NCBI GenBank assembly: GCA_000004695.1
Contig: CM000155.2
Span: 2,464,001 to 2,528,000, forward strand
DNA: 64,000 nt
Reading direction: 5' to 3'
Source: Dictyostelium discoideum
Taxonomy: Eukaryota
Shown here: positions 6,199 to 31,171 of the stretch, piece by piece
Layout of the letters: the number at the start of each line of letters is the position of its first letter
How positions within the stretch are numbered: the first letter of the stretch is position 1
The notes under the pieces: model-generated
Database searches by the model: none
What the model was told of the DNA's origin: nothing
What the model saw: only the letters and a program-made list of their open reading frames with translations
Made by a program: the position numbers and the translations under genes

Positions 6199-6285
<87 letters not shown>

Positions 6286-6675: not shown

Positions 6676-6679
6676 ATAA

Positions 6680-6685
6680 TTGTTG

Positions 6686-6726
<41 letters not shown>

Positions 6727-6973: not shown

Positions 6974-7299
6974 TTTATATATTCAATAATTTTTTTTTAT
7001 TCATTTTTATTTAATTTAAATAATAATAATAACATTTTTTTTTTAATTTTATTATGTTATTATGTTTTATTTTTTTTAAAAGGAATTATCAAATAAAATT
7101 TTTAAAATTGTTATCAAAAATCATATGGTATTGGTAGTTATAATTTATTATTTATATAAATAATATTAACCGAAAAATTTAATTTAAGAAATGTTGGGAC
7201 TATTTATGATTTCATTATAAATATTACCAGTTTGGAGACTCTCAATAAAAAAAAAGATAAAGAATATATTGAAATTAAAAAATTTAATTAGGTTTTGTA

Positions 7300-8812
<1,513 letters not shown>

Positions 8813-9464
8813 ATAAAGGATCACCCAAACTAATTCTATTTTTAATATTAAAAGATTTTTATTACCAATAAAACCAATAAATAAAAAATAAAAAAAAAAA
8901 AAAAAAAATAAGATTTGTTTTAATTTATCACTAATTGTGTACCTCTTTAACTTTATTTATTTTTTTATAATTTTTTTAAAATTTATTTTAAATAAATAAA
9001 AAAAAAAAATTGTTGAAATTAATAATGGTTATTTAAAAGCAAAATTTTAATCATTTCCAATTAAAATTTTTTTTTATCTCTTTATTTATTTTCTATCCAT
9101 TTTTAATTTATCAAAATAAAATTCCAAATAAAAAAAAAAAAAGAAATATGTTTAAATTTAATTTTTAAATTACCAACCAAACAAGATTTTCAAATTAATA
9201 TTAATAAAATTATTATCAATTTTTGTTTAAATTTCTAAAATAAAATAAATTAATGTAATGTTATTAAATATAATTCAAAAATTTCCTAATGTATCTAAAT
9301 AAAAAAAAAAAAATAAAAAAATTATACACCTTTTTAATTTATTTTTGTTTTTATTTTTATTACACTTTTTTTTTATTTTTTTTTTGTTGTTTTTTCACAT
9401 TTTTTTTTTTGTTTTTTCATTTTCTTTTTTTCATTTTCTTAATTCCATTTTTTTAATTTCCACA

Positions 9465-9597
9465 ATGAATTTGGCTAATATCTTAGATAAAGCTTTAGAA
9501 GAGCTTCGGGAGAAGGAATTAACTGATAGTTTGACACAACACGTTAATAATAATAATACTAATAATATTATTAATAGTAATAATAATAATAATAATA

Positions 9598-9659
<62 letters not shown>

Positions 9660-9864
9660 TCTGTGGAGGAATTTAGTTTTAAAAAACATTCTAAATATTT
9701 AAACAATTTTGAAGAATCAAAAATAAATGGGTCAACAGTAAAACAGTTTGAATTCTTTATGAAAAGTGTTTATTTTCACGAATTTGAACTCTCAAAAGAA
9801 GATTTAAATATCGTTTTTAAGTAATTATCATATATACAGTTTTAAGTTTCAAATCAAATACTAA

Positions 9865-9910
<46 letters not shown>

Positions 9911-10140: not shown

Positions 10141-10342
10141 TAATACTTAACAACATTCACATACACACACACACCACTCTCTCTTCACTTTAATAATATT
10201 TTAACATATTTTATTTTTTTTTTTAAAAAATAAAAAAAAAAAATAAAAAAATAATAAGAAAGTTGCAGATAAAATTTATGCAATTATTTTAGATAATAAT
10301 TATGAAGTACTTGGTTTTGATCATTATAATTTATTTTTTATA

Positions 10343-11089
10343 TTGATAATAATAGCTGATAAAATTAGTGCAAATCCACAGGGTATTATAGGATATTTTA
10401 TTAATATTAGCATTTTAGAGATTCCTAATGAAAAAAAACATATGGAATATTTGTTAAAATTCAAAAATTTTATTGTCTATTATTACAAAAAAAATACACA
10501 AGAAGTTTTGAACCAAGAGTTATTTTCATTTCTTGCAGCATTTCATGGACCAGATTTACAAAAACAAAACCAACAATATTTATTAGATTTGGTTTATGAT
10601 ATTAAAAGTTTTCCAGGAAAAGAATACTTGGTTAAAGAACTACTTTCACATGGTTATTACGATTTATTTTTAATGGAATATGCAGAAACAAAAAAACCAG
10701 CTTTTCATTTCTTTTTGTTGAACCATTTACCATTTAATGAATTTCTCAATCTTTCAAAGAATTTCTATTATCATAGTTTTAGAAAATTTTTTAAGAGATC
10801 ACCACCATGGAATTCTGATGCATTCTTAAGAGCATTGTTTCATTCTAATCAGGTACTTTTAAATCCAACTAAAACTGAATACATTTTCAAAATGGTTGAA
10901 GCTTCAACATCTTTATCAACAAATAATATTAAATCATTATATGATGCAGCTTTTCAATTTTCATTAAAATCATCATCATCATCACATTTCTCATCTACTG
11001 TATCAACTTGTTCACCATCTTTATCACCAATATCAACTTTATTTAAATCACATAAATTTTTATCAGAATTATTTGATGAAACTCTATCA

Positions 11090-11130
<41 letters not shown>

Positions 11131-11297
11131 AGTAAAAAAATTATTCTTAACAAATAATTTAGAATTCTTTTTAAAAGTATTAACTATTGATAATATTGAT
11201 AAATATTTATTACAAATTTTTGGTAAAAATAAATTATTATCTTCAAAAATTTATATTGATAAAATCAATTCTAAATTTAATAGTAATAATAATAATG

Positions 11298-11350
<53 letters not shown>

Positions 11351-12936
11351 CAAAAATTTATAAATTATTTACCATTATCAACAGAATTTAAAGAAAGAAT
11401 TTTATATATGTTAAGTTGTGATAAATCAATTGCACAATTTCAAAGATTAAATATAGTTATGGTTTGCAAACATTTCTTTTCTACATTTAGTAAACTTATT
11501 AATAATTCAACGATTGTACCAATCATTTTAAGTTATAATCAATTTAGTAATCTTATTAGTAATTCATTTAAAAATTTTAGATCAAATTCAATGATTTCAT
11601 TTCAAAAAGTGAAATATTTAAAGATCTTTAACGATAGAATTCCAAAACTAACAAACACTGAAAAAATTGAAGAATCAAAATTATCATTAAGATCAAAACA
11701 ATTGAAAAATATATTATCACCACCACCACCACCAATGACAACTAAATTATTTACATCAACAATGTTAACCCATGAAAGTTTTTTTGGTTCAATCTATTTT
11801 TCAATTGACTTTTTCACTGGATTAGAAATTCTTGAAATTGATCAACTCATTGAATTTCATCAAGTTTTATTACTCAAATCACTAAAAAAGATAATATTAC
11901 ATCTTGAACAAAGTGAAGGTTCATCATTTGGTCCTGAAGATAAAGAGAAAATCGATCTTTTAGTAAATGGTGGTATTTTCAATGATTTTACAACTGATGG
12001 ATATATTGTTGAATTACATTTCAAACATTATAAAAATAAAAATCATGGTATAGATATGTCATTAGTGAAATCAGTTTCAATGGGATTATCGAAATTCTTT
12101 GATTTATTCGATGATGATATGGCATCAATACCAATACTTTATTTAGATTTAAATGATTCTCCAACAAGAAATTCACTAGAAACCTTTAAAAAATATTTAA
12201 AATCATCTCCAAAGAAATTATTATTAAATGAATTACATTTACATTTTTCAGTTCATAGTAGTAGCATAATAGGTAATAATAATAATAATAATAATAATAT
12301 TTTAAGTATTGAAAATATTTTAGAGAATTTCAAATCATTCAGTAAAATTCAAACATTATATTTCCATATTACATCCAATGAAATACCAATACCATCTAAA
12401 GTAACCATACAATCAGTTATTAAATCAACACTCGAATTTATTTTATCAAACTTCAAAATGGTCAACAAAGTTTTATTCATCGATGAATATGGTCTTCCAT
12501 TGAATATTGATTGGTATCATATTTTAAATATATTACCTAAAGTGAATATAAATACTTTTGATTTCATAGGGTTTCATATTGATAACCAACCTGATATCAC
12601 AAAGGCTATTGAAGGAAATAATAAAAATAATTTATCAATTAACCAACAACAAAAAGAACAACCAACAAAAACAACAACAACATCAACAAAAACAACAACA
12701 ATAACACCGACAGTAGCAGAAACAAAACAACCAAAAGCAGCAAAAACATCAGAAACAAGACAACCAACACCAATAAAAACAAAACAAACAACAACAACAC
12801 CAACACCAACACCAATAAAAACAACACCAACACCAACACCAACAACAACACCAACACCAACACCAACAACAAAAATACCAACACCAACACCAACAACCAC
12901 AAAAACAACAACAACACCAACACCAACAACAACACC

Positions 12937-12982
<46 letters not shown>

Positions 12983-13486
12983 CCAACACCAACAACAACA
13001 CCAACACCAACAACAACACCAACAACCTCAAAACAACCTCAAAAACCTAAAGAACAATCGCATGAAAACATTGCTTTTACAGATTTTTATGGTTTTAATG
13101 AAAAGAATAGTGAAAAAGATAGCGAAGATGAAGATGAAGATGAAGATGAAGATGAAGATGAAGATGAAGATGAAGATGAAGATGAAGATGATGAGGATAA
13201 GTTTTCGGATGATTGTAGTTCTGACTCATTTTATTTTAGAGAGTACTCTGATAAAAGAGAACTTGGTCAAACTGATGATGGACAATTCACTCCATCAAAA
13301 TATTCCAGAACGAGACATATGTATCATGGTGGTGGTGGTGATGATTCTGATGATTCTGATGATGGCTCAGACTCTGATGAAGCCGCTAACTTTTTTGCTC
13401 ATCAATTAGCAAGAGCTTCATTACATGGAATGTTGGGTGCTTTAGGTTTTCTTGATAATTCCGATAGTGACGATGATTCTGATTGA
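10343..13486 (+). CDS. Large hypothetical protein (at least 1047 aa) with poly-N tracts, a T/P-rich mucin-like repeat region (12650-13030), a (DE)n acidic run (13125-13200) and a conserved C-terminus (FYGFNEKNSEKD...DDCSSDSFYFREYSDKRELGQTDDGQF...LHGMLGALGFLD).
   Basis: 3.1-kb uninterrupted ORF. The frame is open upstream back to 10247 with no in-frame ATG, and the track start at 10343 is a TTG, so the true 5' end probably lies in upstream exons. The ACACCAACACCAACA repeats encode TPTPTT. I recognise no family. Confidence 0.6.
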
Positions 13487-14473
13487 TCAACCTATTCCAA
13501 TAAAAATAATCATCCAAATTAACTCTATTATTAAGATTACCAAAAAAACTAATAAAAAACAAATAAATAAATAAATAAATAAATAAAAATAAAATATAAA
13601 TAAAAAATAAAAAATATGTCTTTTTAATTCTGAAAGTTTGAAATTTTTAAATTTGTTTATATATTTTAGATTAAATAATTTATTTTATAGTTTGAAAATA
13701 AAATTAAATGATTAAATAATTTTTTTTTTTTTTTTTTTTTTAATATTTATTAATCAGTATTAAATAGATAAATATAATAATAAAATTGTAATTGATTGGA
13801 TGGTCGAAGGAGATAAGATTTGGAAGCACTGATTCCGGAATACAATATTGCAAGTTATTTTTCTTAATTAAATTATTTATTTATGGCAATTGTTTGGGGC
13901 TTTTAATTTTAGGCCGTTATACAATTGATTGCAGATTTTAATCATTAATTCCATTATGTTTCTATATGCGAAGTGTAATAAAATGTATTGCCTATATTTA
14001 CCAATAGAACAATAAAGAATATGTGTGAAATTTTAATTACTATTGTACACAAATATTAGTAGTAATAATATTATTAATTCTTTATTATTCCTTATATTTA
14101 TACTTTAACACTAATAATATTATATCTTTTACAAATTATGATTAAAACACCAATGATTTTTATTTATTTTAATTTGGCTTTTTATACTGAATTATTATTC
14201 TTAGAAGCCTGGGAAGGATTTAACGGCAATTTGTTATTCTGAGTAACTTCATTTCGGTTATAGATTGTATATGGAAATGGATCTTTGGAAAAAAACTTAT
14301 AATAATGATTCTATAATTAAAGCTGCTATTCGTTTGTGATTATTAAAGTTTGTGAATAGGTCGTAGTTTACATCTTTTATATTTATTAGAACTATAGGTG
14401 TAATTCTGTTTGTAAATTTATTTTTGGATTCAATATTTCTTTGATGTTGTCAATTTTTTAAAAGAAACTATCC

Positions 14474-14498
14474 AGGACATCGAACCTGCGATCTGATT
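14474..14498 (-). promoter_or_regulatory. Candidate external B box (ex-B) of the tRNA-Glu gene: a tRNA 3'-half-like fragment GGTTCGATGTCCTGGA about 30 bp downstream of the tRNA.
   Basis: The minus strand reads ...ATCGCAGGTTCGATGTCCTGGATAG. It carries a B-box-like GGTTCGAT core but no intact T-stem or acceptor. Many D. discoideum tRNA genes carry an extra B box 20-50 bp downstream. Confidence 0.4.
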
Positions 14499-14516
14499 AA
14501 TTTAGTTTGAAAAGAG

Positions 14517-14588
14517 CTCCCCATCCGGGAATCGAACCCGGGGTACCAGTGTGAGAGACTAGAGTGTTACCGACTACACCAATGAGGA
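14517..14588 (-). tRNA. tRNA-Glu (anticodon CUC).
   Basis: The minus strand reads TCCTCATTGGTGTAGTCGGTAACACTCTAGTCTCTCACACTGGTACCCCGGGTTCGATTCCCGGATGGGGAG. The 7-bp acceptor stem has one G-U pair. The D-arm is GTGT/ACAC. The anticodon stem is CTAGT/ACTGG with loop CTCTCAC. The T-arm is CCGGG-TTCGATT-CCCGG. The discriminator is G. Total length is 72 nt. Confidence 0.8.
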
Positions 14589-14760
14589 ATTGGATGAAAT
14601 TTGTAATAAAGTTCCTCTATAAAATTAATAGATAATAAATATGCATTCACATTACTAATTGTGTGACACACATTTAAATAATATAATAATAATAATACTG
14701 TCAACTCATTATAAATAATATAAATACTAAAGAATAATTTTATTAACAAAATTGGTAATT

Positions 14761-14833
14761 TAGAAACAATCTAAATTAAATAAAAAACCTCAATTTGTAA
14801 TGAAGGTTTTTTATTTAATTTAGATTGTTTCTA
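14761..14833. repeat. Perfect palindrome with 29-bp arms (tagaaacaatctaaattaaataaaaaacc / ggttttttatttaatttagattgtttcta) and a 15-nt loop.
   Basis: Arm 1 is 14761-14789, the loop tcaatttgtaatgaa is 14790-14804, and arm 2 is 14805-14833. It lies about 170 bp upstream of the tRNA-Glu 5' end, between the tRNA and the TRE remnants. Confidence 0.85.
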
Positions 14834-15132
14834 ACGATTAAAATGAGATATCTAAAGAAGCAACTAAAAATTGCGTTATTCGAAAAAAACAAACAACAAC
14901 AACAACAACAACAATCTCTTTTTTTGATTATTTCATTTTTCATATAAAAAGACATAAAACAAATAAATAAATAAAAAAAATAAACTATTTTAAAAAGCCA
15001 TCTTTTTACTTTATTGTAATTTATTATTTGTTTCGTTTTGAAAAAAAAAAATGAAAAAAATAATCAGATCGAAAAAAACAAACAACAACAACAATCTCTT
15101 TTTTTGATTATTTCATTTTTCATATAAAAAGA

Positions 15133-15168
<36 letters not shown>

Positions 15169-15459
15169 GAACCCAAGTTAATCAGAAAATTTCCAGATTT
15201 TTAACTTTTCAAAGTAAAATAAAAAAATTAGAAAGAAAATAAGATGAAAATTACAAACAACACCACAAATATTAAGCGACACAAATGCCTACGAAAAATA
15301 AGCGAAATTGTGAATAAAACTCAATTAAAAAAAAAACAATTCAAATACGTCATAAACATCAATCACGAACCAGACGATAAAATAAAAAAAGATTTAGAAA
15401 AAAGTTTGGACAAAAAAGATGTTTTAATCAAAAGTAATAATACAATTCAAAATTTGAAA

Positions 15460-15514
<55 letters not shown>

Positions 15515-15600
15515 CCCCTCTTTTAGAGACCCTGTAAAAAACTACAAATAAAATGAGATCTAGCATCTCAAGGAGAAGCAACTAATAATTGCGACTTCAT
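14832..15600 (+). mobile_element. Degenerate TRE5-A-like retrotransposon remnants upstream of tRNA-Glu. They comprise a solo 3'-module fragment (14832-14878), two A-modules (14879-15140), a B-module, the first 66 codons of ORF1 (from 15244) and a 3'-terminal module (15516-15597) without an A-tail.
   Basis: A-module sequence gatcgaaaaaaacaaacaacaacaacaatctctttttttgattatttcatttttcatataaaaag... occurs at 14879 and 15066. The B-module cctgagaacccaagttaatcagaaaatttccagatttttaactttt precedes ATG 15244 (MKITNNTTNIKRHKCL...). The ORF is broken at an A-run and joined to ggtaaacccctcttttagagaccctgtaaaaa...aaaatgagatctagcatctcaaggagaagcaactaataattgcg. Confidence 0.6.
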
Positions 15601-15675
15601 CTCTGATTTCTATTGAGATTAGTGATGAAGAATAAAAAAAAATCATTACAACATTTTTATTATTATTTTAAAAAA

Positions 15676-15748
15676 TGGAGAAGAAGGGTATCGATCCCTT
15701 TACCTCTCGCATGCTAAGCGAGCGCTCTACCATCTGAGCTACATCCCC
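15676..15748 (-). tRNA. tRNA-Ala (anticodon AGC).
   Basis: The minus strand reads GGGGATGTAGCTCAGATGGTAGAGCGCTCGCTTAGCATGCGAGAGGTAAAGGGATCGATACCCTTCTTCTCCA (73 nt). The anticodon loop is CTTAGCA, the D-loop is AGATGGTA and the T-arm is AAGGG-ATCGATA-CCCTT. There is one T-T mismatch at acceptor pair 6-67, which is why confidence stays below 0.8. Confidence 0.7.
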
Positions 15749-15864
15749 TTTGATGGAAAGTATTTTTTATTAGAAATACTCGTACGTTATTATCTGAGAT
15801 CGAAAAAAACAAACAACAACAACAATCTCTTTTTTTGATTATTTCATTTTTCATATAAAAAAGA

Positions 15865-15909
<45 letters not shown>

Positions 15910-15984
15910 GGAACCAAGTTAATTAGAAAATTTCCAGATTTTTAACTTTTTAAAGAAAAATAAAAAAGATAGAAAGAAAATAAA

Positions 15985-17319
15985 ATGAAAATCACAAACA
16001 ACACCACAAATATTAAGCAACACAAATGCCTACAAAAAATAAGCGAAATTGTGGATAAAACTCAATTAAAAAAAAAACAATTCAAATACGTCATAAACAT
16101 CAATCACGAACCAGACGATAAAATAAAAAAAGATTTAGAAAAAAGTTTGGACAAAAAAGATGTTTTAATCAAAAGTAATAATACATTCAAAATTCTCACA
16201 GACAGTATTAGTACAGTAATCTATTTTGTAAATATGTTTGATGCAGAATTAAAAGGACAATTTATAACCACTATAAGACCAAAAAATATGTATACAGATT
16301 TTGATTGGTATAAATCACTCACAGAAATAGAATGGGTAATAGAAAATGAAGGATGTAAACTAATTAAATCAGAAATTAAAGGCGAAACTCTAATTATCAA
16401 AACAGTGAAAAGAGTCGTAGAAGAATTTGACACTATCATTGAACTAGACAATCTAACATTAATTGGACACTCCAACAAAGGATGGAGAGATCAAACCTCA
16501 TTACCAGAAAATCAAGAAGAAAACAAAAATAAAAAACAATCAGATGAACAACAACCACAATCTACATCAGAACAAATACCAAAACAAGGAAAAAGAACAA
16601 TCATTATCCCACCAATCACATCCTCATCTAATGATAAAACATTTATGGCCCTAGATGATACAGCTCAAAAGGTAATAGATGCATCACTAGAAAACGTAGA
16701 TGAACTAACAAGAATAGAGAATGAGATCAATACACAATCGATAAACAATCAAGAAATTAAAACAAAATCAGAAAAACCTATCGAACCACCATCTCCATAC
16801 AATACACCAATAAAACAACACGGCGAAACAAAGAGACTAACAACGGAAGAAAAACTTAGAGAGGTAAATGATATCTTCGACTTCACCAGCCCAAACACTG
16901 ATGCAATAAGAAAAATAGAATTCCCACTTTCAATCCCTTCAAATCAATGGTTCTTCTCCTCTCCAATAAAACATATCATGAGTTTCAGCCCAACCTATGG
17001 TACACCATCGAAAATTATCGATTCACCAAGTAAATTGTTAAACACACCAAAAAACAAACAACAAGACAAAACAAACAGGACCAACAAAACACCAGTCAAA
17101 CCAAAATTGGGTGAATATGGACAAAAAAGCATAAAAACAAAAATGGATGAAGATATAGACAACTTCAACAAGGAAATTCTAAAACAAATCAGTAAATCAA
17201 AAAACCCCACAAACACACAAGACCAACAACACAATGAACAAAGTAAAGATCAGTTAGAAGACAAAATAAACCAGAAACTTCAAAAGGTAGATAAAAATCT
17301 ACCCCAAATAAAACTATAA
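15985..17319 (+). CDS. TRE5-A-like retrotransposon ORF1 protein (444 aa), intact.
   Basis: ATG immediately after the B-module. It is 99% identical (4 aa differences) to the copy at 18983..20317. Truncated 66-89-codon versions occur at 15244, 17699 and 20725. I recognise no conserved domain, as expected for ORF1 of this family. Confidence 0.7.
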   Translation: MKITNNTTNIKQHKCLQKISEIVDKTQLKKKQFKYVININHEPDDKIKKDLEKSLDKKDVLIKSNNTFKILTDSISTVIYFVNMFDAELKGQFITTIRPKNMYTDFDWYKSLTEIEWVIENEGCKLIKSEIKGETLIIKTVKRVVEEFDTIIELDNLTLIGHSNKGWRDQTSLPENQEENKNKKQSDEQQPQSTSEQIPKQGKRTIIIPPITSSSNDKTFMALDDTAQKVIDASLENVDELTRIENEINTQSINNQEIKTKSEKPIEPPSPYNTPIKQHGETKRLTTEEKLREVNDIFDFTSPNTDAIRKIEFPLSIPSNQWFFSSPIKHIMSFSPTYGTPSKIIDSPSKLLNTPKNKQQDKTNRTNKTPVKPKLGEYGQKSIKTKMDEDIDNFNKEILKQISKSKNPTNTQDQQHNEQSKDQLEDKINQKLQKVDKNLPQIKL

Positions 17320-17572
17320 AGAAAAACACAATAAGAATAGGTGTTTGGAACGTCCAAGGATCCAATACCATCCAATCTGCCAGCATAATAAACACCGTTT
17401 TAGACAACAACAAGCTGGACGCAGCACTTCTAACTGAAACAAATATAAAAACAAATAAAATTTACTCAATAAATCAACAATATAAAAACAAAATAACACA
17501 CCACGCACCAATTGATAAAACAGGACAAGGGGTGTCACAAATCATCATCAACACCCGCAATAGAACTTCCTA
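17300..17572 (+). pseudogene. 5'-terminal fragment of TRE5 ORF2 (APE-like endonuclease N-terminus), overlapping the ORF1 stop in the +1 frame and truncated after about 85 codons.
   Basis: ...KNTIRIGVWNVQGSNTIQSASIINTVLDNNKLDAALLTETNIKTNKIYSINQQYKNKITHHAPIDKTGQGVSQIIINTRNRTS*. The WNxxG...LxxETxI motif is characteristic of the L1/APE endonuclease domain. The RT domain is absent, as in the short TRE5-A.2-class copies. Confidence 0.55.
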
Positions 17573-17615
17573 AACATCTCAAAAAATACAATAATTCACT
17601 CAGTACTTTCTATAA

Positions 17616-17657
<42 letters not shown>

Positions 17658-17999
17658 CAAGTTAATCAGAAAAATAAAAAAGATAGAAAGAAAATAAAAT
17701 GAAAATCACAAACAACACCACAAATATTAAGCAACACAAATGCCTACAAAAAATAAGCGAAATTGTGGATAAAACTCAATTAAAAAAAAAACAATTCAAA
17801 TACGTCATAAACATCAATCACGAACCAGACGATAAAATAAAAAAAGATTTAGAAAAAAGTTTGGACAAAAAAGATGTTTTAATCAAAAAGACCCTGTAAA
17901 AAAAAAAAAAAAATAAAATGAGATCTAGCATCTCAAGGAGAAGCAAATAATAATTGCGTTATCCAATTCAAAAAAAAAAAAAGTACGTTATTATCTAGA

Positions 18000-18862
18000 G
18001 ATCGAAAAAAACAAACAACAACAACAATCTCTTTTTTTGATTATTTCATTTTTCATATAAAAAAGACTTAAAAAACAAATAAATAAATAAATAAACTATT
18101 TTAAAAAGCCATCTTTTTACTTTATTGTAATTTATTATTTGTTTCGTTTTGAGAATTTTGCGTAGCAAAATTTTCAAAAAAAAAGCAAAAAATAATCAGA
18201 TCGAAAAAAACAAACAACAACAACAATCTCTTTTTTTGATTATTTCATTTTTCATATAAAAAAGACTTAAAAAACAAATAAATAAATAAATAAACTATTT
18301 TAAAAAGCCATCTTTTTACTTTATTGTAATTTATTATTTGTTTCGTTTTGAGAATTTTGCGTAGCAAAATTTTCAAAAAAAAAGCAAAAAATAATCAGAT
18401 CGAAAAAAACAAACAACAACAACAATCTCTTTTTTTGATTATTTCATTTTTCATATAAAAAAGACTTAAAAAACAAATAAATAAATAAATAAACTATTTT
18501 AAAAAGCCATCTTTTTACTTTATTGTAATTTATTATTTGTTTCGTTTTGAGAATTTTGCGTAGCAAAATTTTCAAAAAAAAAGCAAAAAATAATCAGATC
18601 GAAAAAAACAAACAACAACAACAATCTCTTTTTTTGATTATTTCATTTTTCATATAAAAAAGACTTAAAAAACAAATAAATAAATAAATAAACTATTTTA
18701 AAAAGCCATCTTTTTACTTTATTGTAATTTATTATTTGTTTCGTTTTGAGAATTTTGCGTAGCAAAATTTTCAAAAAAAAAGCAAAAAATAATCAGATCG
18801 AAAAAAACAAACAACAACAACAATCTCTTTTTTTGATTATTTCATTTTTCATATAAAAAAGA

Positions 18863-18890
<28 letters not shown>
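18000..18890 (+). repeat. Tandem array of TRE5-A A-modules: four complete units of 199-200 bp (starts at 18000, 18198, 18398 and 18597) plus a partial fifth (18796-about 18868) ending in an A-run.
   Basis: Near-identical units gatcgaaaaaaacaaacaacaacaacaatctctttttttgattatttcatttttcatataaaaaagacttaaaaaacaaataaataaataaataaactattttaaaaagccatctttttactttattgtaatttattatttgtttcgttttgagaattttgcgtagcaaaattttcaaaaaaaaagcaaaaaataatca. The copy at 15797 has a single truncated unit. Confidence 0.85.
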
Positions 18891-18907
<17 letters not shown>

Positions 18908-18982
18908 GGAACCAAGTTAATTAGAAAATTTCCAGATTTTTAACTTTTTAAAGAAAAATAAAAAAGATAGAAAGAAAATAAA

Positions 18983-20317
18983 ATGAAAATCACAAACAAC
19001 ACCACAAATATTAAGCAACACAAATGCCTACAAAAAATAAGCGAAATTGTGGATAAAACTCAATTAAAAAAAAAACAATTCAAATACGTCATAAACATCA
19101 ATCACGAACCAGACGATAAAATAAAAAAAGATTTAGAAAAAAGTTTGGACAAAAAAGATGTTTTAATCAAAAGTAATAATACATTCAAAATTCTCACAGA
19201 CAGTATTAGTACAGTAATCTATTTTGTAAATATGTTTGATGCAGAATTAAAAGGACAATTTATAACCACTATAAGACCAAAAAATATGTATACAGATTTT
19301 GATTGGTATAAATCACTCACAGAAATAGAATGGGTAATAGAAAATGAAGGATGTAAACTAATTAAATCAGAAATTAAAGGCGAAACTCTAATTATCAAAA
19401 CAGTGAAAAGAGTCGTAGAAGAATTTGACACTATCATTGAACTAGACAATCTAACATTAATTGGACACTCCAACAAAGGATGGAGAGATCAAACCTCATT
19501 ACCAGAAAATCAAGAAGAAAACAAAAATAAAAAACAATCAGATGAACAACAACCACAATCTACATCAGAACAAATACCAAAACAAGGAAAAAGAACAATC
19601 ATTATCCCACCAATCACCTCCTCATCTAATGATAAAACATTTATGGCCCTAGATGATACAGCTCAAAAGGTAATAGAAGCATCACTAGAAAACGTAGATG
19701 AACTAACAAGAATAGAGAATGAGATCAATACACAATCGATAAACAATCAAGAAATTAAAACAAAATCAGAAAAACCTATCGAACCACCATCTCCATACAA
19801 TACACCAATAAAACAACACGGCGAAACAAAGGGACTAACAACGGAAGAAAAACTTAGAGAGGCAAATGATATCTTCGACTTCACCAGCCCAAACACTGAT
19901 GCAATAAGAAAAATAGAATTCCCACTTTCAATCCCTTCAAATCAATGGTTCTTCTCCTCTCCAATAAAACATATCATGAGTTTCAGCCCAACCTATGGTA
20001 CACCATCGAAAATTATCGATTCACCAAGTAAATTGTTAAACACACCAAAAAAGAAACAACAAGACAAAACAAACAAGACCAACAAAACACCAGTCAAACC
20101 AAAATTGGGTGAATATGGACAAAAAAGCATAAAAACAAAAATGGATGAAGATATAGACAACTTCAACAAGGAAATTCTAAAACAAATCAATAAATCAAAA
20201 AACCCCACAAACACACAAGACCAACAACACAATGAACAAAGTAAAGATCAGTTAGAAGACAAAATAAACCAGAAACTTCAAAAGGTAGATAAAAATCTAC
20301 CCCAAATAAAACTATAA
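18983..20317 (+). CDS. TRE5-A-like ORF1 protein (444 aa), second intact copy.
   Basis: It differs from 15985..17319 by four substitutions (D/E, R/G with V/A, NK/KK with R/K, S/N). It is followed by the same ORF2 5' fragment (20298-20570). Confidence 0.7.
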   Translation: MKITNNTTNIKQHKCLQKISEIVDKTQLKKKQFKYVININHEPDDKIKKDLEKSLDKKDVLIKSNNTFKILTDSISTVIYFVNMFDAELKGQFITTIRPKNMYTDFDWYKSLTEIEWVIENEGCKLIKSEIKGETLIIKTVKRVVEEFDTIIELDNLTLIGHSNKGWRDQTSLPENQEENKNKKQSDEQQPQSTSEQIPKQGKRTIIIPPITSSSNDKTFMALDDTAQKVIEASLENVDELTRIENEINTQSINNQEIKTKSEKPIEPPSPYNTPIKQHGETKGLTTEEKLREANDIFDFTSPNTDAIRKIEFPLSIPSNQWFFSSPIKHIMSFSPTYGTPSKIIDSPSKLLNTPKKKQQDKTNKTNKTPVKPKLGEYGQKSIKTKMDEDIDNFNKEILKQINKSKNPTNTQDQQHNEQSKDQLEDKINQKLQKVDKNLPQIKL

Positions 20318-20613
20318 AGAAAAACACAATAAGAATAGGTGTTTGGAACGTCCAAGGATCCAACACCATCCAATCTGCCAGCATAATAAACACCGTTTTA
20401 GACAACAACAAGCTGGACGCAGCACTTCTAACTGAAACAAATATAAAAACAAATAAAATTTACTCAATAAATCAACAATATAAAAACAAAATAACACACC
20501 ACGCACCAATTGATAAAACAGGACAAGGGGTGTCACAAATCATCATCAACACCCGCAATAGAACTTCCTAAACATCTCAAAAAATACAATAATTCACTCA
20601 GTACTTTCTATAA

Positions 20614-20683
<70 letters not shown>

Positions 20684-21000
20684 CAAGTTAATCAGAAAAA
20701 TAAAAAAGATAGAAAGAAAATAAAATGAAAATCACAAACAACACCACAAATATTAAGCAACACAAATGCCTACAAAAAATAAGCGAAATTGTGGATAAAA
20801 CTCAATTAAAAAAAAAACAATTCAAATACGTCATAAACATCAATCACGAACCAGACGATAAAATAAAAAAAGATTTAGAAAAAAGTTTGGACAAAAAAGA
20901 TGTTTTAATCAAAAAGACCCTGTAAAAAAAAAAAAAAAATAAAATGAGATCTAGCATCTCAAGGAGAAGCAAATAATAATTGCGTTATCCAATTCAAAAA

Positions 21001-21037
21001 AAAAAGTACGTTATTATCTACAATTCAAAATTCGAAA

Positions 21038-21077
<40 letters not shown>

Positions 21078-21290
21078 TAAACCAACCCCTCTTTTAGAGA
21101 CCCTGTAAAAAAAAAAAAATTAAAATAAAATAAAATGAGATCTAGCATCTCAAGGAGAAGCAAATAATAATTGCGTTATCCAATTCAAAAAAAAAAAGTA
21201 CGTTAATTTCTTATCTTTTCTCAAGGAGAAGCAACTAATAATTGCGTTATCCAATTCAAAAAAAAATTCTACGTTATTTCCAATCATGAA
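21001..21290 (+). mobile_element. Oldest, most distal TRE5 remnants. They are solo 3'-terminal modules with A-tails (21019-21075 internal fragment, 21085-21190 and 21205-21268), separated by diverged copies of the target-site repeat.
   Basis: ggtaaaccaacccctcttttagagaccctgtaaaaa(A)n...aaaatgagatctagcatctcaaggagaagcaaataataattgcgttatccaattc(A)n gtacgttaatttct...tctcaaggagaagcaactaataattgcgttatccaattc(A)n ttctacgttatttcc, then unique sequence from about 21285. Confidence 0.55.
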
Positions 21291-21588
21291 AAATCTGAAA
21301 TTTTTTAGCCACATTAGGAACTCATCTCTGATGAAAACCTATGTACAAGAACATTTAACTCATTACAGCTCATTCATTACAACTATATAAATTCAAATAA
21401 AACAATCAATAATAAAACTTATAAGAAACTAAATAAACTAGGACACACCTAAAATTGGGATTAAGATATTGAAAAAAAAAAAAAAAAAAAAACCCACTAT
21501 TATCATTACTCAAAAGGAATCTTCGATAATTTCTCACACATAATTTCCTTATCCAATTCCCCTTTTATTCTTTCATTTTAATTACATT

Positions 21589-21657
<69 letters not shown>

Positions 21658-21739
21658 ATACTAATAAAATTAAATTTTAATAATTAAAATTTTAAAACTT
21701 ATATTTAATTAAATTTTATTTTAAATTCGTATTCTAATT

Positions 21740-21821
21740 GTCGTAACAAATATAAAATTATAGAATAGAATGACTTAAATGAATTATACGTATTCTATAA
21801 TTTTATATTTGTAACGACAAA
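21740..21821. repeat. Perfect 30-bp inverted repeat (ttgtcgtaacaaatataaaattatagaata / tattctataattttatatttgtaacgacaa) with a 22-nt loop.
   Basis: Arms are 21740-21769 and 21792-21821. The loop reads gaatgacttaaatgaattatacg. It sits about 150 bp upstream of the ATG of the 7TM receptor gene. Confidence 0.85.
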
Positions 21822-21970
21822 TTTTTAAAAAAAATATCAAATTATCGATAAGTTTTTTTTTTTTTTTTTTGATTGTGAAACTTATCTAAAAGTCTGATTG
21901 TTTTTTTTTAAAAAAAAATCAATTTTTTTTTTTTTTTTTCATTTTAATATTTATATCCCAATTAAAAACA

Positions 21971-24900
21971 ATGAATAAAAATTTTCAACTAATTTTATTT
22001 ATCATTTTGATTAACTTAAAGTTTTTCATTGGTAATGTTAATTTTTTAAAAAATTGATTAAAAAAATTGAAAATATATTAATTTAAATTATTATTTTTAG
22101 ATGGATTAAAGGTTTTAAATTCAACATTAACATTAAAAGATGGGACAAATGTTTTCGGGGCTGTATTATATTTTGCAGTTATAGAGTTGGAACTTGATTC
22201 TTATATTTATAAATATGATGCATTGGCATGCCCAAATTATCAATGTTCAACAGTTAATACAACCAAAGATTGTTCATGTGATTATACAAATTTTAGTGAT
22301 TGCCCAAAGACAGCGAATCGAGATCCAAGCTGTTCAACATGCCCAATTCCAACCGTTGAGTATTGTCCATCAATTAATAATTGGGTTACAGTTGAAAAAG
22401 ATATCGATTACATCTTTGAAACCAATCAAACAATGTACCTACGTTACAAAGGAAATTCATCAATATGTGAAGGTATAATGGCAAGATCATATCCAATTAA
22501 AGGTTTTCATAATTTAAAAGGTGGATCATCACCATTAGAATATTTACAAAGAAGTCTATCCAATTATAGACCACAAATCTATGGTGTAATGAATTTATGC
22601 CCAAGTGATATTGATAGTTCAGGTATGAAATCATGGACCCAAGATACATTTTTTTTTACAATTAAACCATTTGGAAATACTGATGGAAGAAATGTAAGCC
22701 TTTCTTTTAGAATAACTTCAAAAGAGGTTTCAAGTGAACCAATTATTACCGATTCATGTACTTCTCCATTTCCAGCAACTCACAGATGTATTTATGATGG
22801 CGAATTTATAAATGAAAAAAGTGAAGCAAGTAGTTATCACTTTTTTGTTTTCAATGCAACAAAATCTGCAATCTATACTATAAGAGCACCACAATTTGAA
22901 CAACCTGTTAGAATTTATGCAAGTATTAATACTCAATACCCAAAGTTAAATGGTTATGGTAATGAAAGGGCAGAATATTCATCAATTGACGAATTTGAAA
23001 ATTCAATTACTATCTATTTAAACAAATCAACTATTTTATATATTTCAATTGAAATTACATATAAAACAAACTATAGTTTAAGTATTACATCTCAAGGATA
23101 TTACTTACCTGTTAATGTATCATCATTACCTCCCAAAGCTGGTGCATATGCTTTGGTAAAATCTTCACAAATAGATTTTGGAAAAGGAGTTACTTATGAT
23201 TGTGATTCTTGGGATACTTGTCAAAGGTTCTCAGTTAATTATCCATTCACTGATAGTAATCCATTGAATCCAATACCATCAGGACTCTATTCAATTCCAA
23301 ACTTTTATTTACCACCCTATCCATTGTTAGACTATGATGAAGAATTATTTTTAGCAAATCCTGTAAAACCAAAATCATTTACAATGTCAGTCCTAGTTGC
23401 CTATAAGTTAGGCAGCAATGCAGTTACAAATTTGGATTATTTAAGTGAAATATCTGCATCACTTGTTAGATTTAAATCAAATATCTTTGATCAAGATGGA
23501 AATGCAATAAATAATGTGGCATCTTTAACTCATTATGATTTACCATGCGATTATGAAGAGTTTTCAATAATTAATAATGCAATTTTAAAAGGAGATAAAC
23601 TATTATACGATGTCACCGATATTAATACTATCAATAGATATAGCTATATGTTAGACTCTTTAACAATTCGTAATAGTTGGATTGGATGTAATGCAAAAGC
23701 AAATTCATTATTTGAACTTAATTTTAAAATAACAAATTACACTATGATTATATGTGACAAAAATGCTTCAACACCAGAGTTTAATGAAGATCCTTGTTGT
23801 AATCCAAATCAAAAATACTTTCAATGTTGTAACCCAAAACCAAAAGAAGTAAATACTGTGGAATTAAGTGGTCTATCATATGAAACAATACAAAGTAAAT
23901 GTTCTTTTCCATCATGTACTGAATCAGTTTTATCACAATTTAATTCAACCTATGTAACTTTAGATTTTTGTGCACTTGATAATGGTATTTATGATCAACT
24001 AAGAACTAATTTAATACAAGTAGTAAGATCATGTAAAGAAAATTCTAGTCCAATTTGTATAAAAGATAGTGATTGTATTGACTACGCTGGTCCTGATGCA
24101 GTTTGTGATTTAATGGGTCATACTTGTATACCAAATTATAAATTTACAGATTATAAATATTTGAAATGTGTATTTAGTCAATTGGATCAAGTTACCACCT
24201 ACAATCTATTACACAAACCATTTTCATTTAATAGTAAAATCATTGATGAAATTTATGAAAAATATCAAAAACAAGATTGTATTACAGAGGGTACATTTTT
24301 ATCACAAAGACTACAATATCGTTGGGATTCAATTGATGCAAGACTTCAAGATCCAAATAAGTTTTATCCATCAAGTTATGGTTTAGATGATAGTCATCCA
24401 ATAATTCATGATACAATGTATGATAAATTATTTGATAATTTCAAAAGAACCTATTCTTGGTCCTATTTTGATTATTGCACAAATTTTTCAATTTGTCCAT
24501 GGGTATACCAAAATGATTATTACTATGGTTTTTCAAATGATCCAAACTCAAAACCAATAATGGATTATTGTAATCAAATTAGTGGTTTTTGTGGTGATTG
24601 TGCAAATGGTTTAAAAAGTTTTTGTAATACTTTTGGCTATAGTGATCAAAATATTTGTGAACAAACAGATTATTGTGTATTAGGTGGAAATTATTTAATG
24701 TCCCAATTGAATATGACACAACAACAATGTGAATCATATGGTATGTGTTCAGTTAATTGTGGTTATCAATGTTCATTTTCAAATCCAACAACCTATCAAT
24801 CAAATTGTTTTGTTTTAAATGTAAATCAAACTCAATGTACCTCAATGACATATACTTGGGATTCCAATTTATCCGCATGTATTGATACAATGGCAACTTC

Positions 24901-27208
24901 AAAATCTCAATGTACAAATCATCATTGGTTAAATTGTACAGAAAAACCAATCGATGAATGTACTGGACCATTTGGAACATTATTTAATTATTGTTCATTA
25001 CAACCAATTGTTTGTTCAACTAAAGAAGAATGTGAAAATGCAGGAGTTTGTTCAGATTCTTATTTCTTTAATCCAACCAATACTCAAGCCTATCCATTTA
25101 ATTTAGGAAAATGTGTACATGGCCATGAAACCTATAGACAATATCCTTCATGTGAATATAATATTGACGGATATATTGAAAATGATAGTCCAATGGGTTG
25201 TTTCTCTTATACTCCTCAAGTATTAACAAAATCAGATTGTGAATCATTGGGTTCAAATTATACATGGTGGCCACCTGCAACAAATAAAAAAGATTGTTTA
25301 AAGAATATGGGATGTAAAGTTTATGCAACAACTACTAAAACTGATATGTTACCATACAATATCATTTTTAATCAAATGAATCAAGATGAATGTTTAGGTT
25401 GTTATGGTTCTCAAAATGAATATACAAATAAATTTGAATGGACACCAGCAACTTGGTTACCAGCTGCATTAGTTAAAGGAAAATGGTATACACCAGATCC
25501 AATCACCAATCAATTTTGGACACCAATTAATAATTTAACAACAACACTTGATTATGGAAAACTTTATGATGATTTAGTTTTGGCAGTAGATTCTCATATG
25601 ACAGATCAAATTCGTTCATCATACTTTTGTAGAACTCAACGTTTTAGAGATAATTTAGATTCAATTGCATGTAGTTGTGCTGATACTGGTGGTTATCGTA
25701 ATTCAACATGTTTCAAGGATTCAGCATTGCTATTTGGTCAAGTGAAACCATGTTCATCAAAGTCTGAAACATTTAATTTCCCAAATGGTTATATTGAGAT
25801 TTCAAATTCATCAGTAGAGGTTGGTTGTGGTGATATGTTGATCTTTCAACTATCTAGAGAAATTTTCATTTCAACAGAAGGTCAATCATTCCCATCCAAT
25901 TTTGTATCATATCCAAAACCTGATAATTTTGGTTTATTTAATAATAATAGTGCAATTGTTGGTACAATCATTGGTGATGGGTTAACAATTGAATCGAAAT
26001 CAATCAATCGGATTTTATTATGTTTCCTTTATTCAGGTAATCCAGATGAAAAGAAATATCCAATTTTAGATTTTGGATGTCAAGATCAAGATACAGGTAT
26101 ACTTCATCCAATGGGATTAAATGTATTTATAGAAACTCAACAAAACCTTGATTTCCTTTGCTCAAATATAACTCATTTAGATTCAAAACAAAATTATTTC
26201 CCAATTAATCGTATTGGTAATGAAGATTGGAGAAATGTTGAAAAGAAATATTTTGATCAAAAAACACTTGGACTACTTTATACATTGGCAGCAATTTATT
26301 TGGTGGTTTTAGTATATGGATTCTATCAATTGATAATAGTTGCAATTATTAGATTTAAAAAAATAATTCATAGATTTGAATTGGTTCATTTGTTATTGTT
26401 TATGATTTTTGTATTCCTTTTGGTTAGAACCATTTATTTCTTTTTATTACCAAGTGGAAAACTTTCAAATAGTGCAGTTGCAGATTATATTTTAGTGGTT
26501 TTACCAACATTCTTTTATTTCAGTTGTTTCACAATCATTATTGTTCTTTGGTATGTTATTGTAGTATTGGTATTAAAGAATAATTCAGCATCAAATTTTT
26601 CCAATAGATTATTCTCAATGGTTGGTTTGGTTAATTTTATAATCTATTTATTATTGGTTGCCATTGTTTTAGTATTCCAATATACCAAAGATTCACCACA
26701 TGAATTTTGTGGTTCCAGAATTATTTTCCATGTATCTACAAATAAAAGTCAAAAAACAGTCTCCATACTTTATGCGGTTATTCAAGCTGTAATTTCTTTA
26801 GTGCTCGGTGTTGCATTCATTTATTTAGGCGGTAGTCTTTATAGAGCAATGAGAGCCGCAAGTCAAGGTGCTAAAAAAGGAGGTTTAGATATAAAGAAAG
26901 CTCACTCTAGAGAATTAAAAATATTTTTATTAACTACAATTTGTAGTACTGGTTTCTTACTTCATTGTTTATTCATTATCATTTTAGTTGCATTAAATGA
27001 ACCTTCAATAGTTTTCAGTTTTATTGGTTTAATAATTACTGAAATAATACCTTCAATAACAATTCTATATTGTTATGATCAAAGAACTAGTTTATCATTA
27101 GATATCACTTTATCTTCAAAATCTTCAAAATCTTTTTCATCAACTGATACAAAATTACAAACTGTTTCTGAAACAATTACTTTTAGTCAAAATTTATCTT
27201 CAGAATAG
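21971..27208 (+). CDS. Seven-transmembrane receptor-like protein with an extracellular region of about 1360 aa that is rich in Cys and N-glycosylation sites. Proposed model is join(21971..22031, 22101..27208).
   Basis: Exon 1 encodes the signal peptide MNKNFQLILFIILINLKFFI and ends in a phase-1 donor G|GTAATG. The acceptor is TTTTTAG|AT at 22100/22101. The main ORF is open from 22082, and the track start at 22187 is a TTG. The C-terminal 400 aa contain seven hydrophobic helices (LLYTLAAIYLVVLVYGFYQLIIVAII ... IVFSFIGLIITEIIPSITILYCY) followed by a Ser-rich tail. The ectodomain carries many CxxC and CxC clusters and NxS/T sites. I see no GPS, PBP or Frizzled-CRD motif, so the family is unassigned. 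Confidence 0.6.
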
Positions 27209-27222
27209 TTAATTAATTAATT

Positions 27223-27254
<32 letters not shown>

Positions 27255-27650
27255 TCTATTAATAGTAATAATAATTATAATTATAATTGTAATAATAAAA
27301 AAAAATATCTTGTATTTTTAATAAATTTATTATTTTTTTCTTTTTTTATAATTAATCAATTATCTGTATCTGTCTTATGTTTTTTTTTTTTTTTTCAAAT
27401 TTCAGGTTTATTTTTTATTTTTTATTTTTTATTTTTTATTTTTTATTTTTTTTTTTAAATTTTTTTATTTTTTAATTATTTATTCTGCAGACATCTGTTT
27501 TTTTTTATTTTTATGATCACAAAAAAAAAAAACCAAAAAAAATAAAGGTTACCACTCTTTTTTATTTTTTTTTTTTCAATTTTTTATGATTTTTTTTTAC
27601 TTTCATTTCCATCAAAAAATTAAAAAAAAAATAACGATACTTATTCCAAA

Positions 27651-27843
27651 ATGAGTGAAACGGATATCATTGAAACTATTAATCAATTAGTATCAAAAGA
27701 ATTTTTAGATATTAATGATATAAATGAATTAATAGATCAAATTAAACAATTAAATTTTGATACTGCTTTAAATCAAATATCAAATAATAATTATCATTTA
27801 ATTAAATTATTATGTAATGAAGCTAAAAAAGTAAAATAATAAT

Positions 27844-27907
<64 letters not shown>

Positions 27908-28318
27908 TAATAATAATAATAATAGTAATTCTATTTTTAAATATTTACAATAAAACTAATTTAAAAAAATAATAATAAATAAATAATAAATAAAAAATAA
28001 TAAAAGAGTATTGATTCAAATTTAGTTACAGAAATTATTAAATTTATAAATGTTATCGCAAATGAAGATAAAAATATAGTTTCAATTTTAATTGAAATGG
28101 AATCGTTTAATTGGATAATACCAAACTGTTTTATAGTTGAAGAGACACTTTCTATTAATTACCTTACAACTTTAAATTTAATATTTTCAAACTTTGATAA
28201 TTTACCAAAAAAAGAACTTTTAAAATTAGATGATTCATTCTTGGATTCATTAATTGAATTAGCATTACAATTTAAAGATTATTATGAAACAAATTTTATT
28301 CATTCATTATATTATACA

Positions 28319-28377
<59 letters not shown>

Positions 28378-29008
28378 CAAAAAAATAATAAATAATAAAT
28401 GAAAATAATAATAAATAATTTTTATTAATTTTTCAATTTAAAAATTTTAAAAGTTTGGATATCAAAAGAATATAATTAGTGATGGATATTCACCATTGAT
28501 ATTAAAATTATATTCAATTAAAGAAGCACCAGAGATTGGACCAGAAATGATATCATTATTAAATAGAAGTAATTTAGAGTATAATATGTTACCACAATGT
28601 TTATCATTAATAAATGATTTATTCACATATAGTACAGAACATGAAATACCATGTTTCTTTTTCACATTAGATATTAAAGTTTTAATTGATATAATAATTA
28701 GGGAAATTAATAATTTAGACGAATTAGATCCATCAAGATGGCAATTTTTAGAGGTATTAAGTACAATCATTGATCATAGTGAATATTCTTCTCCAAATTT
28801 TAATAATGATAGTAAAGATAATAATAATAATCAAAACAATAATTATAATGATGAAGAAATAATATCATTTTATAAAATTGATGATATTAAAAATGTTTTA
28901 TCTATATTAAATGAAGATAGAAATTCTGAAAAAGATCCACAATCATCAATCTTATCAAAATCAATTTTAAAAAAATTAAATAAATTACAACAACAAAAAA
29001 AAAGATAA
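27651..29008 (+). CDS. Hypothetical protein of about 350 aa in three exons: join(27651..27830, 28007..28321, 28454..29008).
   Basis: Exon 1 reads MSETDIIETINQLVSKEFLD...NEAKK and ends at AAAAAA|GTAAAA (phase 0). Exon 2 (SIDSNLVTEIIKFINVIANEDKNIVSILIEMESFNWIIPNCFIVEE...YYTM) follows the acceptor AAAAG| at 28006 and ends at ATG|GTAAGA (28321/28322). Exon 3 starts at 28454 (or the alternative AG at 28469) and reads FGYQKNIISDGYSPLILKLYSIKEAPEIG...NKLQQQKKR*. I recognise no domain. Confidence 0.45.
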
Positions 29009-29171
29009 TTAAATAATAAAATTATGACTAAAAAAAAAAGATGGAAAATTTGTTTTTTTTTTTTTATTTTTTTTTTTATTTATTTATTTTTAATAGATAT
29101 AATGATACATTTAAAAAAAGAGATGAGTCAAATTATTTAATTTTTTTTTTTTTTTTTTTGATTATTATTAT

Positions 29172-29217
<46 letters not shown>

Positions 29218-29283
29218 TAATATTATTTTTAAATAGAAAATAATTCTATTTTAATTATTATTATTGTTTATAATTTTATAATT

Positions 29284-31171
29284 TTATAATTTAACAATTG
29301 GACTTAAACTATTTGAACTATTACTATTATTGTTACTACTTGAACCAGTAATATTATTTGAATCTCTATTTGAATTATTTAATTCTCTGGCACTACCTAA
29401 ATTGATTGAACTTGAAGAACCAGTAGTACCAATTAAACTTGGTTGATAAACACCAGCCAAAGGACTATTGACTTGAGATTGTAAAGATTCGGACAATAGA
29501 TTCAAATCGTATTCAGAGTATTTTGGTAATTTGTTTACAAAGGTAGCAACTTGATGAACGATTTGAAGATTGTAAGGGAATTGATAATGACCAATCTTTG
29601 AGAGGATTTCATAGAGATTTTGTCTCTTTGTGAAATTGATTAAATTGTTCATATTTGAAGGTTGATCTCTTTCGATTTGAGCAAAGTCCTCACGAATAAT
29701 ATCGATCCAAGGAACGCAAGCTGGTTGAGATCTAGCCAAAGCTTCACGATACAATTTGTAATTATCAATTTTTGAGAATAACATCTCATGATCGGCAATG
29801 ATTTCACGATGACGTGGTGTGAATAAATCTGGACGCGATAAAAGTAATGGATGTTGAAGACCTTGAAGTACTGAATGTAAAGTTTGGAAATTATTCAATT
29901 GTCTAAGACATTCGGTTGTCTTTATGAATTTATCCAACATTTTCATTTTGTTCTTTTTATCACGACTTTCATTTAGTACGGTATGGACGATCCAACGTGA
30001 AACATCGGTGGCACGATTAACAAATGTCATAAGATTTGGAGAGGTGGCCATATTATATTGAAACTCACCATAGCCAATTACACGTACCATAAACTCTGGT
30101 GGTGGAATGGCACCAAACAATTTCGATTCTACAAGTGTCATTTGTCTTGCAATTTCCAACTCATCGATATGAGCCAAAGTAAGTTGAGGTGAGAAAATAT
30201 TCTTTGGTACTTTTGGTTCGGGTGGTGGTTCACTGTAGGGTCTAACATCCTCATGTTGAAGTTTCTTTTTAAGTTCTCTCAATTTCTTAATGTTTGAATT
30301 ACCATCACGAGTCAATGAACCATCGATGAAATTATTGAGTGTGGCAACCAAAACCGAAGAGGTCGGACCTGCATTGAAATCCCATGGACATTTATCTACC
30401 CAATATTTCAATACATCAACAACACGTTGACGAACTGGTTCAACCACTTCACTCTTATATTTTGGTTCGTTTGCATTTGAATTTGGTACTTGATAACGTT
30501 GAATCAATTTCTTTAACAATTTCTCAGATGTTGTGAATGATGAATGAGTGTAGAGGAAAACCTTGAGGAAATTTGGATCGAATGCTTTCTCCTTTGGTGC
30601 GAGATAATGAATCAATTTATTGAATGTTGCCGCTTTGATTTGAACTTTATTATTATCGGTTTCAACTTTTCTAATATTTCTATTGTTATCTTCACCCTCC
30701 TCCCAAACGTTGATATCCTCTTCCTCGTCGAAATGACGATAGTCGTGATAGAGATGATCTACCACTGCCACCTCTGGATCATTACCTTCCTCTTTGGAGA
30801 ATAGTGATAAATCTGTATCGAAAACATTCTTATTTCTTAAACGTGGTTTAACTAAACGTAACAATGAAACCAAACGACTCTCTCCAGATTCAGTTGGTTG
30901 ATGTAATACACCAGACTCTTTTTGAATGGCTGCAATCACTTTATGATATGTATTTCTCTCCAAATATTCCATAATTAATTGAAGTACAAATTGATGTGAC
31001 AATGCTAATCTATTCTCTGAAAATGATGGTGTTGCCAAAGTTTTTGCAAATGATTTACTACCTGTAAATGCTAATGTCTTTTCTCTTAATTCTAAAATTT
31101 CTGGATGTTTTTTCATTAATGATGCTTCCCATAATTCTTTTGGTATATTTTGAACTCTATTTGATTCATAA

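Follow-up and report, generated by a model that had tools for sequence, protein, structure and literature searches.

In a 64,000-nucleotide window of the Dictyostelium discoideum genome (assembly GCA_000004695.1, contig CM000155.2, positions 2,464,001 to 2,528,000 of the forward strand), a tandem array of 199-bp units was identified that very probably corresponds to the An stretch in the 5' untranslated region (UTR) of TRE5-A (formerly DRE), a non-LTR retrotransposon, in its non-autonomous form TRE5-A.2. Such arrays are already known as the An region of DRE/TRE5-A, and this one does not constitute a new kind of element. What may be new is all quantitative: the number of full units ranges from 0 to 21 among the TRE5-A copies, the units are identical within a subfamily, and one and the same insertion carries four full units in one assembly and 21 in another. 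Positions given below without a locus name are those of the window; the element features lie on its plus strand, and the tRNA genes on its minus strand.

Tandem Repeats Finder (TRF) delimited the array at 17999..18891 as 4.5 copies of a 199-bp unit (99% matches, score 1751). The final ~26 bases of this span are the beginning of a run of 38 adenines and do not belong to the unit. Splitting the sequence on a unit anchor yielded full units at 18000, 18199, 18398 and 18597, that is, 4 x 199 bp that are mutually 100% identical; in the TRF phase, in which the unit starts with AGATCGAAAAAAAC, these four complete units occupy 17999..18794. The fifth unit is partial. It consists of the first ~70 bp (18795..18865), hereafter X, ends in ...CATATAAAAAAGACTT, and is common to all TRE5-A copies examined. 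The array totals 4.35 units (17999-18865) and is followed by the poly(A) tract A38 (18866..18903), which opens the B-module; the 3' copy of the B-module likewise has poly(A) ahead of it. Pieces of the unit of 59 and 68 bases gave 7 and 4 matches in the window compared with 0 in 100 shuffles, which excludes chance and confirms that the array is real. The tandem array of the original prediction and its 199-bp period were thereby confirmed by TRF and by the anchor split, whereas the proposed five copies are reduced to 4.35 units.

The array forms the 5' part of the element E2 (17997..21005), which comprises the A-array, A38, a 5' B-module (18904..19172), ORF1 (18983-20317), a remnant of ORF2 (to 20611), A70, a 3' B-module (20682-20915), a C-module (20916-20995) and A10. 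The 5' B-module contains the start of ORF1 at 18983, and its second copy was placed at 20682-20914. In a BLAST comparison of the two B regions (18852-19171 versus 20614-20914) the identity was 89% with one indel of ~29 bp. In E2 and in the adjacent element E1, described below, the B-module measures ~270 bp and the C-module ~80 bp, and ORF1 encodes 444 amino acids. The ORF2 remnant of both elements is a ~270-bp start of ORF2 fused to the last ~60 nt of ORF2, and comparison with the full-length copy L022 identifies it as the product of an internal deletion. Multicopy proteins of D. discoideum AX4 match the ORF1 protein of E2 at 99-100% identity, and it is equal to a sequence whose entries include EAL60924; together with the exact match of the E1 ORF1 given below, this places the window on chromosome 6 of the AX4 reference. 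In the databases, the matching ORF1 proteins are named 'hypothetical protein' only. Sister copies with the ORF1 variant P0009 have a downstream ORF2 of 1047 amino acids with a PF00078 (RVT_1) domain.

The published structure of the non-autonomous TRE5-A.2 is AB-ORF1-BC, where A is a 200-bp module with a plus-strand Pol II promoter, B is a ~290-bp module that defines the start of ORF1 and is duplicated at the 3' end, and C is the 3' module (PMC3159450). The order found in E2, A-B-ORF1-(ORF2 remnant)-B-C-oligoA, agrees with this structure. E2 also shows the other traits of TRE5-A.2, namely insertion upstream of a tRNA gene, a duplicated B-module together with the ORF2 deletion and oligo(A), and a TRE5-A ORF1. 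The identification of the unit as the TRE5-A 5' A-module, as originally predicted, is therefore supported by its size, its 5'-terminal position, the AB-ORF1-BC architecture and the insertion upstream of a tRNA gene; the promoter role of the unit, assigned from this size, position and architecture, is putative.

The very A+T-rich genome of D. discoideum contains many simple repeats, and in principle the array could have nothing to do with the promoter module of a retrotransposon and be a minisatellite of the host or a set of separate truncated insertions piled up. We consider such an origin highly improbable. The array begins exactly at the 5' junction of E2 after the target-site duplication (TSD), and it ends in a junction of X, poly(A) and B that is conserved in 14 of 14 copies. 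Furthermore, neither internal TSDs nor poly(A) tails occur within the array, and the 199-bp unit is confined to the 5' ends of TRE5-A elements in the window and in 28 other loci. Both the host minisatellite and nested insertions were rejected on the exact 5' junction, the conserved 3' junction and the lack of internal TSDs.

The insertion site is next to a tRNA-Ala(AGC) gene, found by ARAGORN at 15676..15748, the 5' end of which (15748) faces the TRE5-A elements. The same program placed a tRNA-Glu(CTC) gene at 14516-14588. Between the tRNA-Ala gene and the first element there are 47 nt (15749-15795), and the A end of the element is proximal to the gene; TRE5-A is known to integrate ~48-50 bp from a tRNA gene (PMC3159450). 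The TSD is the 14-mer GTACGTTATTATCT, which was read from the sequence in three copies: at 15782..15795 ahead of the element E1, at 17983..17996 between E1 and E2, and at 21006..21019 after E2. E1 (15796..17982) is also a TRE5-A.2 element and is composed of a 70-bp partial A unit (15798-15868), A37, a 5' B-module, ORF1 (15985-17319), an ORF2 remnant (to 17613), A42, a 3' B-module (to 17889), a C-module (17890-17969) and A13. It is 98.3% identical to E2 over 2.2 kb. The single unit that had been ascribed to this sister copy at 15797 is an overestimate, as only the first ~70 bp (0.35 unit) are present before A37.

Tandems of TRE elements at one tRNA gene are typical (PMC5391098), and E1 would represent a second TRE5-A.2 that hit the tRNA-Ala site of E2 and produced such a tandem. 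As in the published cases, E1, E2 and older remnants are arranged head to tail and reuse one 14-bp target. The TRE-TRE tandems concern whole elements, unlike the 199-bp array, and the tandem at the tRNA-Ala gene accounts for the second, 'sister' 5' end located 2.2 kb upstream of the array. Behind E2, the 3' ends of older, 5'-truncated TRE5-A elements are stacked at 21020..21270, where TRF reports a 71-bp period. C-module ends were recognized at 21098-21196 and 21219-21266, each followed by a decayed copy of the target, GTACGTTA... The stacked C-module ends and decayed targets indicate at least four successive insertions at the tRNA-Ala gene.

Two further observations concern the interval between the tRNA-Glu and tRNA-Ala genes. 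An older, ORF-less A-B-C relic at 14880..15595 has the pattern XYX (95% identity; Y is the part of the unit that follows X). It is made up of one A unit, altered by additional CAA repeats and by a deletion, and of the 70-bp partial unit, followed by A29, B and C. Its B-module runs straight into poly(A) and C, like the 3' end of full-length copies, and the relic is found in both assemblies (in L015 from 4735). Its structure suggests a 'solo' product left by the recombination of a 5' B-module with a 3' B-module. The preceding ~240 bp (14637-14879), which begin ~48 bp upstream of the tRNA-Glu gene, have no TRE5-A match; they contain a ~40-bp inverted repeat (14748-14836) and a degenerate C-module-like end (14843-14879) that abuts the A unit.

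For the analysis of unit number in other TRE5-A copies, we collected 28 loci of the assembly GCA_054883475.1 by exact-protein matches and used BLAST to count the two parts of the unit, X (taken as its initial 66 bp) and Y (the remainder). Approximately 18 distinct TRE5-A.1 and TRE5-A.2 copies located by 15 different tRNA genes carry 0, 1, 2, 3, 7, 8, 10, 19 or 21 full units. Among the TRE5-A.2 copies, 21 full units were counted in L015, eight in each of L010 and L016, two in L011a, two plus a truncated third in L012b, one in each of L013, L014 and L018, and none in L017, which is truncated. The TRE5-A.1 copies counted are full-length and have an ORF2 with RVT_1; they carry 19 full units in L029, ten in L023, seven in L027, at least five in L026, where the end of the locus cuts the array, three in each of L022 and L024, and one in L028, and two additional copies have two and one. 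The distance between the start of the arrays and the tRNA-His, Val, Thr, Ser, Gly, Tyr, Lys or Asn gene is 46-59 bp.

All of the ~18 surveyed copies possess one B-module per A-array. The A/B junctions are identical in 14 of 14 copies and consist of the 70-bp partial unit, a run of A26-A42, and CCTGGGAACC... This constancy indicates that the partial unit is inherited and is not an accident of E2. The layout of the TRE5-A 5' UTR can thus be written as X(YX)n-poly(A)-B, where XY is the 199-bp unit, X is its first ~70 bp, and n is 4 in the window. These results change the original prediction in two respects. First, the array of the window was presented as one of which nothing like it was known; the A-array is variable (0-21 full units), and the window array is not rare, since 2, 3, 7, 8, 10, 19 or 21 full units are common in the copies of GCA_054883475.1. 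Second, the unit boundaries, which were suggested as possibly coinciding with the A/B module junction, do not coincide with it, because the A region ends 70 bp into a unit in all 14 junctions.

In every array, the units are identical within a subfamily. The TRE5-A.1 unit is distinguished from the TRE5-A.2 unit by three fixed differences: it has A8 for A7 at position 6, T101C, and A8 for A9 near the 3' end. Elements with 0 substitutions between their 2.1-kb bodies carry n = 1, 8 and 21, thus n changes much faster than point mutations accumulate.

The same insertion as in the window could be compared between the two assemblies. GCA_054883475.1 is probably the Nanopore and Illumina assembly of strain AX2-214 described in PMC12745789, as its near-identity to AX4 suggests. 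On either side of the array, its locus L015 aligns colinearly with the window (L015 1-5724 with 10157-15894, and L015 9013-21335 with 17999-30402); the flanks show 0 substitutions in 5.6 kb and 1 in 9.4 kb, and all but one of the remaining differences are homopolymer lengths. At this locus there is a single TRE5-A.2, located 50 bp upstream of the tRNA-Ala gene, with an array of 21.5 units (5628-9905, 4.28 kb), and E1 is absent. E2 is colinear with L015 9013-12013, and one substitution separates the two 2.1-kb bodies. The TSD and the 5' junction, TSD+AGAGATCG, are shared by the two elements, while the junction of E1 is TSD+GAGATCG. Based on this shared junction and the single substitution in the body, the L015 element is E2.

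The 21.5 units of L015 imply that the window array is not an expansion artefact. An assembly artefact had been considered as a possible refutation of the original prediction; for expansion this concern is ruled out, and for collapse it is justified, given 21.5 units in L015 versus 4.35 in the window. The count of four in the window is either a collapse in the Sanger reference or a real difference that arose in situ between laboratory lineages. According to the first explanation, the AX4 Sanger reference collapsed an array of ~21 identical 199-bp repeats to four, the array itself being real, and we give this somewhat less than an even chance. The ortholog in an independent assembly of the long-read era has 21.5 units, and its flanks differ by 0-1 substitutions in 15 kb; with 100% identity among them, the four window units cannot be counted by reads shorter than 1 kb; and the AX4 reference is given as having 8x coverage (PMC12745789). 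On the other hand, AX2 and AX4 parted decades ago and differ at this locus by the whole element E1, whose own 5' junction and unique ORF1 demonstrate that real structural change occurs here; moreover, the very different array lengths of elements with identical bodies indicate that n changes biologically.

The second explanation, that the A-array is a hypervariable promoter minisatellite that has changed its length in place within decades of culture (4 units in AX4 and 21 in AX2), is put forward only tentatively. The locus would supply direct evidence of such change in place only if the four units are not a collapse. If the explanation is true, the transcriptional output of individual TRE5-A copies, and perhaps that of adjacent tRNA genes, would differ between laboratory strains; selection at the level of the element would favour additional promoter units, and recombination would counteract it by removing units. 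In any case, the AX4 reference may under-represent the length of the TRE5-A promoter arrays, or at least differ from AX2, which calls for caution with the reference assembly. This is relevant to the measurement of TRE5-A transcription, to the design of A-module reporters, and to read mapping at tRNA-linked loci.

E1 is more likely a real insertion of the AX4 lineage than a mis-assembly. Its ORF1 is identical to EAL60923/DDB_G0293142 and is unique in the protein collection searched, and 6-9 private substitutions set its body apart from the other TRE5-A.2 bodies in the comparison. A pure mis-assembly was judged unlikely, since both the TSD+GAGATCG junction and these substitutions are unlike E2 and all other copies. 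The likely source of E1 is an unsampled master copy, from which it arose as a lineage-specific insertion.

The unit junctions (...AATAATCA|GATCG) are seamless, with no bases added or lost in more than 100 junctions, a pattern that speaks for unequal homologous exchange or replication slippage rather than for end-to-end template jumping. We propose that n would shift at the DNA level by homology-driven unequal sister-chromatid exchange or by replication slippage, and the identity of the units would explain why n changes readily. The array would then behave as a minisatellite of promoter monomers. By analogy with the monomer array of mouse L1, additional units would multiply the promoter and factor-binding sites.

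Transmission of the array by retrotransposition can also be envisaged. Complete elements begin with (G)AGATCG, which corresponds to the unit boundary plus an extra G, and PMC3159450 describes a cap-derived G of this kind for endogenous TRE5-A. Judging from this start and the extra G, transcription would begin at the first base of the unit; the whole array would then be copied into RNA and be heritable by retrotransposition. Two independent insertions, L010 at a tRNA-His gene and L016 at a tRNA-Gly gene, both have exactly n = 8 and both start at the unit boundary. This coincidence hints that n can also simply be inherited via RNA, and it does not distinguish an origin of the arrays at the DNA level from one at the level of reverse transcription (RT).

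An RT-level origin would mean that the TRE5-A reverse transcriptase made the array by switching templates or slipping on the repeated 5' end, and that the array arrived at the tRNA-Ala gene already amplified. The exact eight units shared by the tRNA-His and tRNA-Gly insertions show that arrays are at least transmitted through RNA, and template jumping is known for non-LTR reverse transcriptases, as cited in PMC3159450. Nevertheless, we regard amplification during reverse transcription as unlikely. The seamless junctions fit homologous exchange better than end-to-end jumping, and, provided that both assemblies are correct, n at this one insertion is not the same in the two strains, a difference that no RT event can produce. 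A change of n at the DNA level, with additional inheritance via RNA, is our preferred reading.

The arrangement described here has counterparts in known systems. Marschalek et al. (1992, Mol Cell Biol 12:229) reportedly described a DRE 5' end in which a single B module comes after one A module or several (AnB), and Schumann et al. (1994, Mol Cell Biol 14:3074) are said to have dealt with the A-module promoter of DRE/TRE5-A. The window array shares with this description the organism, the ~200-bp 5' module, the order of A-modules followed by one B-module (here four full units and one partial unit), and the location ~50 bp upstream of tRNA genes. Nothing essential is different; the additions are the fixed 70-bp end of the array and the three quantitative points named at the outset. 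A search of full-text literature on A-modules, which did not cover the original DRE/TRE5-A papers, revealed no discussion of module number.

The 5' UTR of the mouse LINE-1 element contains a variable number of tandem ~200-bp monomers (A, Tf and Gf types) that carry the sense promoter. The 5'-most monomer is usually truncated, a non-monomeric tether lies ahead of ORF1, and promoter strength depends on the number of monomers. Similar to mouse L1, TRE5-A is a non-LTR element with a variable number of tandem ~200-bp units in its 5' UTR; the analogy is functional only, the two arrays being presumably unrelated in sequence. In contrast to mouse L1, most TRE5-A copies have a complete 5'-most unit, which begins at the presumed start of transcription, whereas truncation affects the 3'-most unit, at a fixed site. 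By this analogy, TRE5-A may join mouse L1 as a second and independent case of a LINE-like element whose promoter consists of tandem monomers.

No 199-bp array was detected at the ORF1 homologue that is closest outside D. discoideum (66% identity; L019 4050-5400 of D. cf. discoideum, GCA_054859235.1), which is a single example. The 5' region there is more G+C-rich and includes a tRNA-like stretch at ~4790-4860 without an ARAGORN call. An unusual arrangement, a tandem of element bodies, was observed in D. discoideum at L025/L026 (GCA_054883475.1, CM142511.1, ~3.02-3.04 Mb), where at least three TRE5-A.1 ORF1/ORF2 pairs are arranged head to tail, with ~120 bp from an ORF2 stop to the next ORF1 start and no A units in between.

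Finally, in both TRE5-A.1 and TRE5-A.2 the stop codon of ORF2 is followed directly by a long poly(A) tract and then by the B- and C-modules (17614-17655 in E1, 20612-20681 in E2, and ~10770-10815 in L022). The B- and C-modules look like material that was added to an older polyadenylated 3' end; the 5' B-module is also preceded by poly(A). A 3'-transduction idea for the C-module is mentioned in PMC4559204, and the order of poly(A) followed by B and C is consistent with it.
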